From a candidate division WOR-3 bacterium (GTDB taxonomy: Bacteria > Hydrothermota > Hydrothermia > JBDRYB01), in NCBI GenBank assembly GCA_039803205.1, contig JBDRYB010000003.1, positions 64,001-128,000 of the forward strand: a stretch of 64,000 nucleotides of DNA. Direction: 5' to 3'. The position numbers were made by a program. Of the stretch, positions 1-64,000 are shown in pieces (within the stretch, counting starts at the first letter, position 1; the number at the start of each line of letters is the position of its first letter).

Positions 1-3000
1 TGAGCACAAAGAAATCGTAACTCCCAGCGCCGGAACTGGAAGTGAATCCAGCCACCACAAGACCGTTGTCCGCAGTTAAGACTGCAGAGTGAGCCTGATC
101 ATATCCGTCTCCGCCGAAGGTCTTATACCACTGAAGGTCGCCGCTGGAATTAAACTTGGAAATAAAGAGGTTCTCATCTCCAAAGCTATATGTCTCGCCC
201 ACGATCGCGAACCCGTTGTCACTGGTCTGAACTATGCAGTGACTGTGATCGAATCTGGTCCCTTGTATTACCTGGGCCCAAGTTATGTTTCCGGATGGGT
301 TCATTTTGAACACTAGGCAATCCGTACCATCTCCAAGCCCAAGATCAATCGGTCTCGTAACCAAGTAGCCACCATCAGTGGTTTGGATGACAGAGCCTGC
401 GTAGTATTCAATGCCCGTCATGTCTTCTACAGACCTAGCGAACTTACCCTGCGCCAAGAGCGCGCTTGTGGTGATAAAAAAGCATGTCATGATGAAACCT
501 CCGTATGGTTTTTGTTTTCAAGGCAAATGTGGGCCGGCCGGGTTTTAACGGGAGGTGCAGAGATTCCCGACCGGCCCTTGGTTTTCATCTCACAACCGCC
601 TTTCCTTTATATGGCCCTGCCTGCCATAGATAGACGCCAGAATCAAGGGGGATGCGGGTCTGACCTTTTTCCAGGTTATCTGAGATGGCCACGCGGCCAT
701 CGGCCGAGTAGAGCTTTATGGGCAGGGCCTCGTTGGATACGAAGAGAACACCACCGGTGACCGGCGAACAGGTTATCCAGCCATGAGAGCCAGGATTGAT
801 CTCCTCAACATGCTCGTAAAGGGGCTGGCAGACATCGGTTACTGTCGGCGCGGAAGCCGTAGTGATGAAATCCAGGTTTGTGGTGGTATGAGTCCAAGCG
901 GGAGCAGAGATACTGAGATCTGGCGTCAGAAAATCGGGGGTCCCCAGGGGCGGCACCTGATCAACTACACAGTCGGAATAATCCCCGTTTCCGTCCATCT
1001 TCAGAAAAGCAATATCATGCTCTCCGACGGGAATGTTGAATGTGTTTCCCGCGACCGCGAACCCCCCGTCCGGTGTCAGAATTATGGACTGGGCGTGGTC
1101 ATCAACAGTCGCGTTGAAAGTCCTGGACCACAGGACGCCACCGGTTACATTGTCCATTTTCATGATCAGGAAATCATTGTTCATGGTTCTTGTGTGCCCT
1201 GCGGCCACGAGTCCCCCGTCCGAGGTCTGGACTATGGATGTGGCGTAATCGTGTATGCCTGTCGCTACCGTTGCCCAGGAGAGATCACCGTCGGAATCTG
1301 TTTTCATGACCATAAACATCGGCAGATCCCCCACGAAATTGCCTACTTCCGTTATGCCAGCGACCGTAAAACCCCCATCAGAGGTCTGGATTATGAAGTT
1401 GCCCTGATCAGCCCAGGTGTGAAGTCCGCCAACCATCCCAAAAAAGAACCTCGTCCAGAGGACAGACCCATCCGGATTCAGCCTAAGGATAGGGATGGCA
1501 TTATCGCTGTATATCGCGTCTTCATAGATCACCCCCGTGATAGCATATCCGCCATCGCTTGTTTGAACTATGGAATAGGCCTCTCCTAACCATCCCGGCC
1601 CATAATAATATCTTGCCCAGTTCGTATTTCCATCAGCGTCAAGCCTGAGGGCAATCAGGTTATTACCCCATGCCCCTATGGCATAGCCTCCGTCCGTGGT
1701 TCTGATTATGGAGCGCCCCTCCTCGTAGGTCGCTCCTGCTCCATAGGTCTTTGCCCAGGATAGGTCTCCGTCAGGTTCCAGCTTGAGAACCAATATGTTC
1801 CTTCTTGGGCCAGCATAACGCGTGGTGCCTCCGGTGACGACAAACCCGCCATCTGTCGCCTGGACTATGGAATATCCCACATCAACGCTTGTGTCGCCGT
1901 ATGCCTTGGCCCACACGAGGTTCCCGTTCGGATCCAGCCTGATGACCAAGACATCATCTCCACCAGCGCCAAACGCCTGCGTGGTTCCGGCGAGCGCGAA
2001 CCCGCCGTCCGTGGTCTGGACCACGGAGTAGATGTAGTCATCGCCTGTCCATCCATAGGTCTTCGCGAAAAGGTTCTGCGAGACCAGCACAGATACTATT
2101 AAGGTGTTCATGTTAAAGCCTCCGTATGGTTTTTGTTTTCAAACAAAATGCAGGCCGGCCGGGTTTTAACGGGAGGTGCAGAGATCCCCGGCCGGCCCTT
2201 TGTTTTCATCTCACAACCGCCTTTCCTTTATATGGTCCCGCTTGCCAGAGATAGACGCCAGGATCAAGGGGGATGCGGGTTTGGCTAGGTCCTAGGAGTC
2301 CGGAGAAAAATAACCTGCCATCAGGGAGATATAGTCTAAGGAGGCTCTCTTTTTCGGAGGCAAAGATTAGCCCACCGGATACAGGAATACAAGTTATCCC
2401 TCCGGGGTGGTTATACGGATCATCTTGATAGTAATCCATCGGGGAGCATATACTTAAGGTGCTTAGACTAACAGAAGTCATAGAGGGTGCTATCGTGACG
2501 ACATATGGTGTGTATGACTTTCCTGTGTTAACATTCTCATCTACGACAGGTATATTTGTGAGGGTAGCCTGTTGCCAGTCCATAATACAGCCCGCGTAAT
2601 CCTGACTCGCATTTACCTTTAGTACGAGCAGGTCGTAGCTAGAGGCATAGCTATTAGAGTATCCCAGAACAGCAAATCCTCCGTCGTCGGTTATAGATAT
2701 ACTCAAGGATATGTCCGAGTTTGCCCCACCAAGCTTTTTGACCCATAGGAGGTTGCCGCCGCCGTCGATCTTAATTATGAAGATGTCATCGCTAAGACCC
2801 GAGAAAGAGCCAGTTACTATAAGATTGTCACCGTCTACACTAGTAGACCCATACACATTGGTAGCAGAGAGATATTTTGCCCAGATGGGGTCACCCACGG
2901 CATTCGTTCTAAGTATAACCACATAAGGGCTTCCGGTATTCATCTCGCCGGTAAATATGTATCCCCCATCCGGCATCTGAGCTATATCCACCACGCCCTC

Positions 3001-63000: not shown

Positions 63001-64000
63001 AGATAATCGCCTCAGGATGGGTGAAGATCATCATAGACCTTGAGAATGTTGAGTTCGTGTCCTCCTCGGGTTGGGGCTCTTTGATAGGCTCTCTGAGGAG
63101 GGCACACGAGGCGGGAGGTGATATGGTCCTGGCAAACATGAAGGGTCAGGTTCAGCGCGTCTTCAAGATGATGGGTTTTCGCGCTGTTCTCAAGGCCTTT
63201 AATAACGTGCCTGAGGCCTTGAATTACTTCATCTCTAAGAAGTAATGGACAGAGAAGCCGCTGCCAGGAGGGCTCGTGTCCTCAGAGAACTCATAAACAA
63301 ATACGATTATCATTATTATGTCCTTGACAAGCCCCTTGTTTCCGATCAGGAATACGATGATCTCAAGAGGGAGCTCATAGAGATAGAGGAGCGCTGGCCG
63401 GAGCTCATAACCCCTGATTCGCCAACTCAGCGAGTCGGCGCGGCGCCCCGGGAGGAGTTCACGAAGTATCGCCACGCCTTGCCCATGGTCTCCCTGGATG
63501 ACGCCCGGAATCCGGATGAGCTCAGGGAGTTCCACGGTAGGATAGAGAGGCTTCTCGGCCCTACGGTGGCTGAAAGACTGGAATATGTCGCGGAGCCAAA
63601 GTTTGACGGAACATCATTAGAGGTCGTCTATGAGAACGGGATAATGTCCGTGGCGGCAACGAGGGGAGATGGGGTTCTCGGGGAGGATGTCACTCCAAAC
63701 GCGAGGACAATAAGGAACCTTCCCCTGAGACTCCGCACGGATGACCCACCCCCAAGGGTTGATGTAAGGGGCGAGGTGATAATGCGGGTTAAGGATTTCA
63801 CTGCCCTAAACAGGAAGCTCGCTGAGGCGGGCGAGCCGACATTCGCTAATCCGAGGAACGCGGCCGCTGGCTCTCTTAGGCAACTGGACCCCAGGATAAC
63901 CGCTGGAAGGCCTTTGAGGTTCGTAGCGTGGGGCATGGGTTTCTCAGAGGGAATAAGCCTAGGGAGGCAATCCGAAATACTGGATTGGCTTGAGGAGATC

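Follow-up and report, generated by a model that had tools for sequence, protein, structure and literature searches.

The 'genome' of RcGTA, a gene transfer agent (GTA) of Rhodobacter capsulatus and its relatives, comprises at least 24 genes at five loci (PMC5026251). Its phage-derived head and tail genes are host-owned, inherited vertically, held under purifying selection, co-regulated from several loci and not packageable as a unit. The gene set described here resembles RcGTA in these respects, with co-regulation predicted, and the likeness extends to the order of one module, which runs protease, capsid, adaptor, stopper, terminator, tube and chaperone. In RcGTA g13-g15 a cell-wall peptidase adjoins a large tail-tip protein, as in the tail-tip operon reported below. 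In RcGTA, however, terminase, portal, capsid and tail lie in one main cluster of about 15 kb, whereas here they form separate units. Sequence kinship is limited to common phage families, and none of the NCBIfam GTA families matched the proteins of the system that were searched. RcGTA is regulated through GafA/CtrA and quorum sensing, in contrast to a putative mini-sigma factor and an S24 repressor here. The host also differs, being an uncultured hot-spring bacterium; the source records of its homologous proteins name candidate division WOR-3 or Candidatus Hydrothermia.

The late sigma factor of T4, gp55, is truncated, reads a short -10-like element without a -35 and activates morphogenesis genes, for which it requires gp33 and the sliding clamp. 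The present system would share with it a truncated sigma and a single -10-like element, and no gp33- or clamp-like partners were identified in this system, where a 94-aa neighbour is a candidate. PBSX of Bacillus subtilis is one contiguous cluster of about 28 kb, unlike the dispersed units here, and yields a non-propagating, phage-like particle induced by DNA damage, as is proposed here. PBSX lysis uses XhlA, XhlB and XlyA, and an XhlA-like membrane protein is found here by a weak match. Both systems pair an Xre-type repressor with a small sigma-type late-gene factor, a putative one here. The PBSX factor, Xpf, is described in PMC10141391 as a positive control factor of sigma type, with a link to DNA damage and with both sigma2 and sigma4 domains; the present protein resembles region 2 only. 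A further difference is the S24 self-cleavage domain of the present repressor.

In the Caulobacter crescentus GTA (GafYZ), GafY binds at the promoter of its own gene, at the main cluster and at about 18 accessory promoters scattered over the chromosome (PMC11150451). A dedicated, self-activating regulator with a promoter-defined, dispersed regulon is a feature of both systems, a predicted one here. GafY acts with RpoD (PMC11150451), and with IHF, at promoters with a degenerate -35, in contrast to the -10-like 7-mer without a -35 and the regulator resembling half a sigma factor that are described below.

Head, neck and tail genes in dispersed units

The window is the whole 64,000-nt stretch of contig C3 that was analysed; window positions equal C3 positions minus 64000, and the gene calls come from a simple longest-ORF script. 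The preliminary description had placed one set of tailed-phage morphogenesis genes at three loci among housekeeping genes, namely a portal gene, a head-to-tube operon and a large terminase gene. The operon, on the minus strand at 29450-33352, was recovered with the same gene content and coordinates, and the family matches for capsid, protease, portal, terminase and head-tail adaptor were reproduced (Table 1). Capsid and portal Pfam profiles find a single match apiece across the assembly of 2.32 Mb, in agreement with the single copies reported earlier. The flanks of the block are indeed housekeeping or envelope genes, including a methyltransferase gene upstream on the same strand, and GC is flat across the region at 0.53-0.56. 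Downstream of g00651 the genes are unrelated in every lineage, which places the end of the operon there.

Table 1. Coordinates and supporting evidence for the phage-derived units and their putative regulators (window positions unless a contig is named)
Feature	Position	Strand	Evidence
Prohead serine protease g00657	32834..33352	-	First gene of head-to-tube operon; Peptidase_S78 1.6e-6; phrog_80 head maturation protease 4e-25; 78-83% identity to 5 other lineages; dN/dS 0.09-0.12
HK97-type major capsid protein g00656	31818..32831	-	Phage_capsid 6.2e-45; phrog_10 1.3e-49; dN/dS 0.09-0.12
Head-tail adaptor g00655	31253..31774	-	phrog_442 head-tail adaptor 2.1e-12; phrog_2377 Ad1 7.8e-11; dN/dS 0.12-0.25
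125-aa neck protein g00654, stopper position	30918..31295	-	Canonical gene order; kept in 6 lineages; dN/dS 0.20-0.32
114-aa protein g00653, tail-terminator position	30577..30921	-	Gene order; kept in 5 lineages; dN/dS 0.09-0.18 where computable
Siphovirus-type tail tube with inserted Ig-like domain g00652	29860..30567	-	AF2 model and Foldseek; dN/dS 0.13-0.17
137-aa helical protein g00651, tail-chaperone position	29450..29863	-	Last operon gene; kept in 4 lineages; dN/dS 0.17-0.24
CACTATT, head operon	33372..33378	-	About 19 nt before protease ATG, then GGAGG
CACTATT before mini-sigma gene	23501..23507	-	Kept in G001, G002, L014
115-aa mini-sigma, sigma-70 region 2-like, without region 4	23136..23483	-	Weak sigma profile matches
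94-aa helical protein downstream of mini-sigma	22740..23024	-	80-86% identity in G002 and L014; dN/dS 0.08-0.18
XRE-HTH and S24 self-cleaving repressor (CI/LexA type)	23613..24248	+	Peptidase_S24 3.9e-21; HTH_3 6.1e-16; phrog_4 transcriptional repressor 3.1e-46
Palindrome CCGTTA..TAACGG, candidate operator	23561..23579	.	Sigma/repressor intergenic region
360-aa protein, translationally coupled to repressor gene	24245..25327	+	Overlapping stop/start; 66-69% in G002 and L014
Portal, solitary	C3:40941-42041 (outside window)		Phage_portal 5.5e-61; PHROG portal 1.9e-64
Large terminase	C3:138757-140046 (outside window)		Terminase_6N/6C 2.6e-13/8.8e-13; PHROG large terminase 6.6e-42
Six-gene tail-tip/holin-like operon	C5 end to C3 start		CACTATT in front
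118-aa Gly-rich protein	C4:3296-3652		CACTATT in front

The tail-tube assignment of g00652 was upheld by an independent AF2 model. Built from 11 sequences, it reached pLDDT 79.7 and pTM 0.73 (pLDDT only 45.8 with five orthologues), and all 13 Foldseek matches listed to rank 14 were siphovirus tail-tube or tail entries, best JBD30 (E 7.8e-9), then 8xkn_B (7.9e-8), YSD1 (2.5e-6) and Chi (3.4e-6), with low TM-scores of 0.27-0.39. A remote homologue is also contained in phrog_8234. Neither g00654 nor g00653 matched a family profile (Pfam, PHROG) or an entry in a profile search of PDB sequences, and g00651 had no match among Pfam, PHROG and NCBIfam profiles.

Each of the three species of the genus has portal and terminase as solitary genes, with differing flanks. 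The terminase unit also includes a Spy/LTXXQ-like gene, and neither the Walker A motif of the terminase (AGRRFGK[TS]) nor its three nuclease Asp motifs vary among the three species; a pattern search for a canonical Walker B (hhhhDE) found none. In G000, in G002 and in six metagenome contigs from about four further organisms, the seven-gene head-to-tube block is identical in content and ends and adjoins neither portal nor terminase. Distant capsid relatives in other lineages keep an ordinary, contiguous portal-protease-capsid order, and chromosomes within the genus show strong rearrangement. By these comparisons, dispersal of the morphogenesis genes is ancestral and stable. The capsid locus, which had escaped notice in an incomplete congener, was found there (G001) as the methyltransferase gene, a CACTATT motif and the beginning of the protease gene (~75 codons) at a contig end; the capsid gene itself was not seen.

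Three further units belong with the set, among them a six-gene operon that runs from the C5 end into the C3 start, contig ends that an exact 127-nt overlap joins. It encodes proteins of 226, 129, 67, 367, 1054 and 195 aa, and gene order and motif are preserved in G001 and G002. The 67-aa protein is holin/XhlA-like, with a coiled coil and a transmembrane segment (holin phrog_689 1.3e-4; XhlA weak, 0.095), the 367-aa protein is LamG/PKD-like, and the 195-aa protein resembles C92/NlpC-P60 peptidases (Peptidase_C92 weak, 0.13). The 1054-aa protein has Atlas feature hits that hint at a tail-tip role ('Phage tail protein family' 0.91, Sipho_Gp37 0.85), but these are leads only, since 4-10% of shuffled proteins reach 0.9. 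Family profile searches, PHROG, NCBIfam and Pfam among them, gave no significant match for the 226-, 129-, 367- and 1054-aa proteins. Evolution of the tail-tip genes is fast, at 43-57% identity, and their GC3 is lower (z -1.3 to -2.1). No convincing tape measure and no small terminase were found in the set; family profile searches also identified no endolysin firmly, and the set may have more members beyond the proteins scanned. Known siphovirus-type tails require a tape measure protein, for which the 118-aa protein is the sole candidate, with a weak match to a tape-measure PHROG (E 0.005).

Purifying selection, claimed previously, is borne out by our own Nei-Gojobori estimates: dN/dS is 0.07-0.32 for the phage-derived genes against 0.04-0.32 for 60-odd neighbouring genes, ratios that are rough because dS, at about 1-2.5, is saturated in both groups. 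Portal and terminase are among the most conserved members (0.07-0.11), and the newly added members give 0.12-0.32 where computable. About 16 genes are all intact in every lineage seen, and codon use in the head and packaging genes resembles that of the host (percentiles 32-99), in contrast to the phage contig C23. A capsid query found strong matches in 2 of 272 genomes of the phylum, both of this genus; portal and the terminase, 226-, 118- and 1054-aa proteins were found in the two congeners searched, G001 and G002. These comparisons support a dispersed, vertically inherited, selectively maintained and GTA-like phage morphogenesis set, a reading that fits all tests made, with vertical inheritance traced at shallow depth, through three species genomes and metagenome contigs of one narrow lineage.

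The CACTATT motif and the sigma-like gene

An invariant 7-mer, CACTATT, lies 6-25 nt upstream of the portal, terminase and head operon starts, at a fixed position in every orthologue examined despite differing flanks. It also precedes the tail-tip/holin-like operon, the gene for the 118-aa Gly-rich protein and the gene for a 115-aa sigma-like protein. The dispersal reported earlier stands, but the count of three loci gives way to at least six predicted transcription units, each with this one promoter-like motif. Before the head operon the motif has an equal position in G002, G001, L010, L011, L012, L013, L014 and L015, and also in L017, a more distant lineage. It generally stands about 8-12 nt before a Shine-Dalgarno sequence; at the terminase it is 6 nt before a GTG that is near-leaderless and without a Shine-Dalgarno.

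With both strands counted, the 2.3 Mb contain 113 copies of CACTATT, fewer than the median of 193.5 across the 210 7-mers that share its composition. Nine of the 113 copies have a promoter-like layout and fall outside called genes, and six of these nine are the six units. Across about 160 kb of related loci, which include the near-duplicates L010/L011 and L013/L014, 18 of 24 copies precede orthologues of the six units. It is the sole 7-mer common to all 20 upstream regions compared, unchanged in 20/20 while the bases around it diverge, and no random sextet of upstream regions shared any 7-mer (0/20000). The genes upstream of the units vary between species, with motif and distance to the start fixed, and no -35 conservation was seen upstream of the motif in the aligned regions.

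We infer that CACTATT may be a minimal promoter read by the 115-aa protein, which resembles sigma region 2 only. Eleven of its 12 NCBIfam matches are sigma factors, over the N-terminal half of the profiles, with a best E of 4.4e-5 and all below cut-off; Pfam gave Sigma70_r2 at 0.014 and HTH_16 at 0.003, and three of four matches in a PDB profile search were sigma factors (E 0.8-1.1). Homologues form 14 clusters, 13 of them at 112-125 aa, and strong matches occur in 3 of 272 phylum genomes, which are all three species of this genus; dN/dS is 0.07-0.09. The motif before the gene itself suggests autoregulation. The downstream 94-aa protein, with only a weak DUF5681 match (0.067), could speculatively be a small terminase or a co-factor.

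The S24 repressor that had been noted near the capsid locus is the sole S24 protein of the genome and is now tied to the system through the adjoining sigma-like gene. The two genes are divergent, back to back, and the pairing is kept in G001, G002 and L014. The repressor conserves its GDSM serine, VKRM lysine and (A/G)G site. The intergenic region is 79% identical over four species and keeps its palindrome, of which no second copy was found in the genome at up to one mismatch. The 360-aa protein coupled to the repressor had no match in family profile searches (Pfam, PHROG, NCBIfam).

Possible roles of the set

With the new elements added, namely CACTATT, three further motif-bearing units and the sigma-like gene paired with the S24 repressor, the set is probably a phage particle system of GTA or PBSX type that has been domesticated and fully dispersed and is run as a mini-sigma regulon. 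The ancestor would have been a siphovirus-like prophage ordered terminase, portal, protease, capsid, neck, tube and tail tip, which shed its integration and replication genes and whose genes for morphogenesis came to lie in at least six separate units, in a genus whose chromosomes are heavily rearranged. The units would stay coordinated because each retained the minimal promoter. DNA damage or another RecA-type signal might lead the repressor to cleave itself, and the mini-sigma then produced would read CACTATT before its own gene and amplify its synthesis by positive feedback. All units would fire simultaneously, heads would assemble and be filled with DNA by the terminase, neck and tail would be joined to them, and the cell would lyse. 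The genes are spread over a length of DNA that far exceeds the capacity of one phage head, so the particles would be unable to carry their own genome, and their product would therefore be either host DNA cargo, as in a GTA, or PBSX-like killer particles. If true, the bacterium has one working, host-owned particle system resembling a gene transfer agent, although to call it a GTA is a functional claim beyond proof by sequence.

That the particles are instead killer or defence particles (phage-like bacteriocins), which package host DNA incidentally and benefit the host by killing competitors or by altruistic lysis, is unlikely. The Xre/CI-type repressor, small sigma-type activator and XhlA-like protein do resemble PBSX (PMC10141391) more than RcGTA, and the fast evolution and low GC3 of the tail-tip genes would be expected of receptor-binding parts in an arms race. 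The strong conservation of terminase and portal argues that DNA packaging matters, and killing and transfer are inseparable by sequence. A regulon with a different reader is a shade less probable: CACTATT could be the site of another activator working with the housekeeping sigma factor, as GafY does with RpoD in the Caulobacter GTA regulon (PMC11150451), or a 5'-leader RNA signal for processing, antitermination or translation, the 115-aa protein being an ordinary helix-turn-helix regulator or anti-repressor. The sub-threshold sigma likeness, with PDB E-values near 1 and a similar HTH_16 score, would allow this, as would the closeness of the motif to the ribosome-binding site, which permits transcription from upstream, for instance from the methyltransferase before the head operon. 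Against it stand the predominance of sigma factors among the NCBIfam and PDB matches, all over region 2, an absent -35 that fits a factor without region 4, upstream genes that vary while motif and spacing do not, and the terminase layout, which fits a leaderless transcript.

Scattered old prophage remnants without joint function, with single genes perhaps co-opted and CACTATT as leftover late promoters, are very unlikely. The firmly identified parts do lack tape measure, small terminase and endolysin, the element is restricted to one narrow lineage, and rearrangement in the genus is strong, but the genes are intact in every lineage at synonymous saturation with housekeeping-like dN/dS, terminase and repressor retain their catalytic motifs, and the regulator pair is conserved along with a motif that is invariant amid diverging bases, when promoters without a reader would decay. 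Least probable of all is a host helper set that packages a small mobile element or trades parts with an infecting phage supplying tail parts. CACTATT and a Shine-Dalgarno stand directly before a Rep-O-like gene in an integrase-bearing island (C11:48276-51138), the bin includes C23, a 30-kb phage contig of 44% GC with its own long tail genes, and the host set is without a tape measure. However, G002 gave no match to the island's Rep gene and G001 only a marginal one of 61 residues (E 2e-4), whereas the structural regulon is present in both, and C23 is distinct in GC and codon use, with all of its CACTATT copies inside genes.

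Head-to-tube block and solitary packaging genes

Seven closely packed genes lie on the minus strand of the window (see the table), and the head-to-tube block of the preliminary description is borne out by family matches of the protease, capsid and adaptor and by a fold search with the tube protein. The remaining block proteins, of 125, 114, 235 and 137 aa, gave no family match. An AF2 model of the 235-aa tube protein from five close orthologues reached a pLDDT of 45.8 and was discarded; with six remote homologues added, the pLDDT was 79.7. In the Foldseek listing down to rank 14, each of the 13 entries is a tail tube or tail of a siphovirus, including those of JBD30 (E 7.8e-9), YSD1 (2.5e-6) and Chi (3.4e-6). 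The TM-scores are low (0.27-0.39), as the flexible Ig-like insertion in a protein of two domains would lead one to expect. A profile search with the tube against 1.84 billion representative proteins returned only 10 matches at E<=1e-3, none of which bears a named tail family. Neither the tube nor the 1054-aa protein of the tail-tip operon described below matched any of 50,697 phage records by tblastn, and profile searches of PDB sequences gave no meaningful match for the tube, its block neighbors g00653 and g00654, or the 195-aa and 367-aa proteins of that operon.

Elsewhere in the window, where GC is flat, the genes have housekeeping and envelope functions, and no other phage family was found. 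A 155-aa ORF, antisense to the esterase gene and in frame with the last block gene g00651 past its stop, was considered as a chaperone extension of g00651 and rejected, given that the layout is not common to other species; the ORF is probably spurious. The methyltransferase gene directly upstream of the head operon is found there in this genome, its congener G001 and the metagenome lineages L010, L013/L014 and L015, and not in the congener G002 or in L012; it is 86-88% conserved, more than the phage genes. The Amidase_3 protein of the window is probably a host cell-wall enzyme, with neither the upstream motif described below nor a tie to the phage units.

The portal and large terminase genes had been placed at separate loci, and in each of the three species of the genus both in fact stand alone, among neighbors that differ species by species. 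Single chromosomal copies, also claimed earlier, are confirmed for the portal and capsid families by one match each in the whole assembly. The Walker A motif and three nuclease aspartate motifs of the terminase are invariant; the canonical Walker B pattern was not found in it. The LTXXQ protein directly follows the terminase in three of three species, though all other surroundings of the terminase differ. The portal gene of G001 adjoins an NFACT gene, which in the present genome follows the terminase, and this neighborhood hints at a former adjacency of terminase and portal.

None of the scanned unit proteins is clearly a tape measure, a small terminase or an endolysin. Two ORFs of 215 and 76 aa upstream of the terminase were rejected as small terminases, as they have no family and a lipoprotein signal, and do not adjoin the terminase in G001 or G002. 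The helical 94-aa neighbor of the mini-sigma gene has no HTH match. Putative small terminases of known gene transfer agents (GTAs) are without a DNA-binding domain (PMC11841831), and the 94-aa protein therefore stays a small-terminase candidate.

Coordinates and properties of the features (G000 is the genome studied; C, contigs; L, individual loci)
Feature	Position	Strand	Properties
Head-to-tube block, seven genes	window 29450-33352 (C3:93450-97352)	-	
Prohead protease g00657	block start	-	Peptidase_S78 1.6e-6; phrog_80 4e-25
HK97-type major capsid protein g00656		-	Phage_capsid 6.2e-45
Head-tail adaptor g00655		-	phrog_442 2.1e-12
155-aa ORF	window 28937-29404	-	
SAM-dependent methyltransferase	window 33453-34184	-	
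Mini-sigma gene	window 23136-23483 (unit at C3:87136)		115 aa; CACTATT before own start
XRE-HTH/S24 repressor	window 23613-24248	+	divergent from mini-sigma gene; HTH_3 6.1e-16; Peptidase_S24 3.9e-21; phrog_4 3.1e-46
Amidase_3 protein	window 58855-60630	+	591 aa; N-acetylmuramoyl-L-alanine amidase, 3.7e-38; adjoins TatD
Portal	C3:40941-42041		Phage_portal 5.5e-61; solitary, flanked by propeller-repeat proteins and mfd
Large terminase	C3:138757-140046		Terminase_6N/6C; phrog_2 6.6e-42; solitary, then Spy/LTXXQ-like gene
Spy/CpxP-like LTXXQ/Metal_resist protein	C3:140111-140536 (L007:12111-12536)		3.3e-16
Tail-tip operon	from C5:112359; C3:130-4953		
Tail-tip genes 1 and 2			226 aa and 129 aa; no match
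Tail-tip gene 3			67 aa, coiled coil and transmembrane; holin phrog_689 1.3e-4; weak XhlA 0.095
Tail-tip gene 4			367 aa; sub-threshold LamG and PKD matches
Tail-tip gene 5			1054 aa; sole leads are Atlas feature matches, 'Phage tail protein family' clusters 0.91 and Sipho_Gp37 0.85
Tail-tip gene 6			195 aa; phrog_1128 2.8e-19; weak Peptidase_C92 0.13
118-aa protein	C4:3296-3652		Gly-rich hydrophobic center; CACTATT kept in G001 and G002; dN/dS 0.13-0.18
G002-specific insertion (G002 contig C21)	L008:2708-3743		197-aa phrog_1281 protein and 126-aa protein
Integrase island	C11:48276-51138 (L034:4276-7138)		tyrosine integrase (phrog_1 8.5e-68), HTH_17 excisionase-like gene, 424-aa Rep-O-like winged-helix protein
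Four-copy repeat in G000	C2:159570, C26:22693, C29:10674, C44:107		about 60 identical bases around CACTATT

Distribution, dispersal and selection

The genome is a 2.32 Mb bin that is 96% complete, and the homologous proteins are labeled candidate division WOR-3 or Candidatus Hydrothermia by their sources. Four DNA runs of one hot-spring study contain the locus, with no RNA run listed. A capsid profile found close relatives in two of 272 genomes of the phylum (this one and G002) and nothing closer than distant HK97 capsids in three more. Genome contigs searched with the single capsid protein yielded no close relative; the profile recovered one distant Chloroflexia prophage-like locus of ordinary contiguous order from genome contigs and two distant contigs only from viral ones. 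Portal, protease and capsid genes are adjacent, as in ordinary phages, in two of the three genomes with distant capsids (G172 and G252), in one Chloroflexia locus and in one viral contig, and the dispersal is therefore derived.

The seven-gene block recurs on six metagenome contigs with a capsid identity of about 80%, and on two shorter contigs at 63-66%. It always begins with the protease and ends past the 137-aa gene, never adjoined by portal or terminase. The genes upstream of it vary; downstream, an esterase, a flippase, an acetyltransferase, a 360-aa gene, the S24 repressor and a small HTH gene are kept in G002 and on the metagenome contig L014. All units are present in the congeners, save that no capsid gene was seen in G001, and their divergence is that of the flanking genes; taxon depth in these comparisons is shallow, and gene calls were simple.

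Nei-Gojobori dN/dS against the present genome is 0.07 for the portal, 0.09-0.12 for capsid and protease, 0.10-0.11 for the terminase and up to 0.32 for the stopper, as compared to 0.04-0.32 for sixty-odd neighbor genes of the same loci; given that dS is saturated at about 1-2.5, these ratios are approximate. No stop or frameshift is present in any orthologue examined. In codon use, the head and packaging genes resemble the host (percentiles 32-99), and the phage contig C23, of 44% GC, does not.

At all loci compared between this genome and its two congeners, gene order is scrambled every few genes, with proteins 65-90% identical, and neighbor genes in G001 and G002 map to different contigs of the present assembly. 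The genus is unusually rearranged, a likely cause of the dispersal.

A shared CACTATT signal, further units and a candidate regulator

In all species CACTATT lies ahead of the portal, terminase and protease genes, often after GCG. A distance of 8-12 nt separates it from the GGAGG ribosome site that follows, and at the terminase it stands 6 nt before the GTG. CACTATT is the only 7-mer common to all 20 upstream regions compared, and none of 20000 random sextets of this genome's upstream regions shares any 7-mer. The word is uncommon: both strands of the genome together have 113 copies, and the 210 words of equal composition have a median of 193.5. A loose filter, for a start codon with a ribosome site or a leaderless start, is passed by 18 of the 113, nine of which lie outside other called genes. 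Six of these nine precede the portal, the terminase and the head operon and, in addition, a tail-tip operon, the gene for a 118-aa protein and a mini-sigma gene; the other three are located at the Rep gene of an integrase island on contig C11, at the 3' end of a tRNA and 1.3 kb ahead of the terminase. Related loci of other organisms, about 160 kb in all, in which L010/L011 and L013/L014 are near-duplicates, contain 24 copies, and 18 of these precede orthologues of the six units; one of the remaining six precedes a gene inserted specifically in G002 and five lie elsewhere. No -35 conservation is visible around the word. A different AT-rich core (TTATATTATAA-like) is repeated before several ordinary genes, and CACTATT is therefore not the housekeeping promoter; a sigma-54 reading was rejected because the GG/GC spacing is inconsistent.

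The G002-specific insertion, which has CACTATT and GGAGG just upstream, lies between the 360-aa gene and the acetyltransferase gene and is absent from the present genome. The four-copy repeat around a CACTATT is located mostly near contig ends; it probably represents the end of an insertion sequence, at which the assembly breaks.

The tail-tip operon runs off its contig, the last 127 nt of C5 being identical to the first 127 nt of C3. Gene order and CACTATT are the same in G001 and G002, and the C5-C3 join is therefore taken as real. Faster evolution (43-57% identity) and a lower GC3 are seen in its genes. The best Atlas score for the 226-aa protein, 0.78, is too weak to use. A 192-aa ORF past the operon is not conserved in G002 and was set aside as probably spurious. 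The 118-aa protein weakly matches the N-terminus of a tape-measure PHROG (E 0.005); it is the only tape-measure candidate and could equally be a membrane or lysis protein.

The 115-aa product of the mini-sigma gene has 12 NCBIfam matches, 11 of which are RNA polymerase sigma factors (ECF types and SigH). The alignments cover region 2, at about residues 20-110 of profiles 190-220 residues long; none reaches its curated cut-off, the best E being 4.4e-5. Pfam gives Sigma70_r2 at 0.014, and three of the four PDB matches of a 12-sequence profile are an RpoS sigma2 fragment, an ECF sigma and sigma-H (E 0.8-1.1). No one of these matches is significant alone; their consistency would speak for a sigma-like protein. 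Region 4 was not matched in NCBIfam or Pfam, and in each of the 14 homologue clusters the protein ends at about 115 residues; the lack of region 4 fits the missing -35 element. The family comprises 14 clusters, all of this lineage and 13 of them of 112-125 aa; across the 272 phylum genomes, strong profile matches occur only in the three congeners.

The divergently encoded repressor is the only Peptidase_S24 match in the genome. Its GDSM serine, VKRM lysine and (A/G)G site are conserved, as in S24 repressors of the LexA/CI type; the canonical LexA winged-helix domain is absent, and TIGR00498 (lexA) covers the S24 part only, below its cut-off. The 129-bp region between the sigma and repressor genes is 79% identical across four species and contains, at window 23561-23579, the palindrome CCGTTA..TAACGG, which is unique in the genome. 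A role for the palindrome as a genome-wide SOS box was rejected, given that no other copy exists at up to one mismatch and matches with three mismatches resemble the AT-rich promoter cores of ordinary genes. The S24 proteins in other families of the class are of a different build, about 207 aa long and 26-36% identical, and match only the C-terminal half of the repressor. The genus may have lost or replaced canonical LexA.

A probable domesticated phage system and its possible operation

Phage-derived structural genes are held here in the chromosome and inherited vertically, with the same block in the same neighborhood in this genome, G002 and L014, and they are under purifying selection rather than in decay, as had been proposed. 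The domesticated, GTA-like reading of the preliminary description is likewise supported, and is extended by the shared promoter signal, the further units and the regulator. Of the particle parts, support exists for the head, the portal, the large terminase, the adaptor and the tube, and leads point to a putative tip operon. With units spread over more than 138 kb of one contig and onto another, no particle could carry all of its own production genes, suggesting that the cargo would be host DNA or that the particles act as killers.

Several known systems invite comparison. RcGTA is encoded at five loci, including more mobile host-recognition loci that the fast tip genes recall (PMC5026251); here the genes are dispersed without a main cluster. 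An alphaproteobacterial GTA of the RcGTA type fits poorly, given that terminase, portal and capsid lie at separate loci, and none of 17 proteins scanned against NCBIfam GTA families gave a significant match (the best was a GTA head formation protein, E 0.43). An intact or recently defective prophage would also supply structural genes; no integrase or replication gene lies beside any unit, GC is flat and codons are host-like, which argues against it. A phage-inducible chromosomal island or capsid-forming satellite does not agree with dispersed units, none of which adjoins an integrase, and the only integrase island seen, on C11, is without structural genes.

Judged from its genes, the set is best described as a domesticated phage system, GTA- or PBSX-like, in which an unusually complete dispersal and a private mini-sigma promoter code would be the noteworthy features. 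The further reading, a fully 'exploded' GTA of thermophilic WOR-3/Hydrothermia in which contiguity has been replaced by a -10-only CACTATT, a region-2-only sigma and a CI/LexA-type repressor, is tentative and leans towards the doubtful. Parts of it have parallels: Caulobacter GafY controls the main cluster and about 18 accessory promoters (PMC11150451), and PBSX responds to DNA damage through an Xre repressor paired with Xpf, a sigma-type factor (PMC10141391). No description of the combination of an absent main cluster with a half-sigma and a 7-nt promoter was found in the literature searched, nor any paper combining 'WOR-3' with 'gene transfer agent'.

From the genes, their scattering and maintenance, and the conserved signal that they share, a chain from induction to release may be proposed. 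Self-cleavage of the repressor would release the mini-sigma gene, whose product would amplify its own expression and turn on all units. Heads would be assembled and filled by the terminase, neck, tube and tip would then be added, and the holin-like protein and the peptidase would aid release or entry. The link to an S24 repressor predicts damage-induced particle release in hot-spring communities. If the particles carry host DNA, the system would be a route of gene exchange in a phylum for which metagenomes are the only source.

Contiguous clusters are what prophage finders look for, and the recognition of GTAs outside the lineages where they are established is therefore an open problem. GTAs are known by experiment in few lineages, namely Alphaproteobacteria, Brachyspira, Desulfovibrio and Methanococcus (PMC11841831). 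A conserved private promoter and its regulator offer a detection route without contiguity, linking scattered pieces and even recovering missing modules. If the 'exploded' reading is true, this would be the first GTA-like system in the phylum and the most dispersed known, and its regulator a natural minimal single-domain sigma factor that drives a cellular regulon. Together with its 7-nt promoter, a region-2-only sigma would provide a thermophile-derived transcription switch that is both compact and orthogonal.

Two other elements of the bin lie apart from the six units. The Rep gene of the C11 integrase island, with CACTATT and a ribosome site upstream of its start, was not found in G002 and has a marginal 61-residue match (E 2e-4) in G001. 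Contig C23 is 30161 bp at 44% GC in a 54% GC bin, with phage-like genes of 1159, 2584 and 1149 aa, foreign codon use and CACTATT copies inside genes; it probably belongs to a distinct phage whose DNA was sorted into the same bin.
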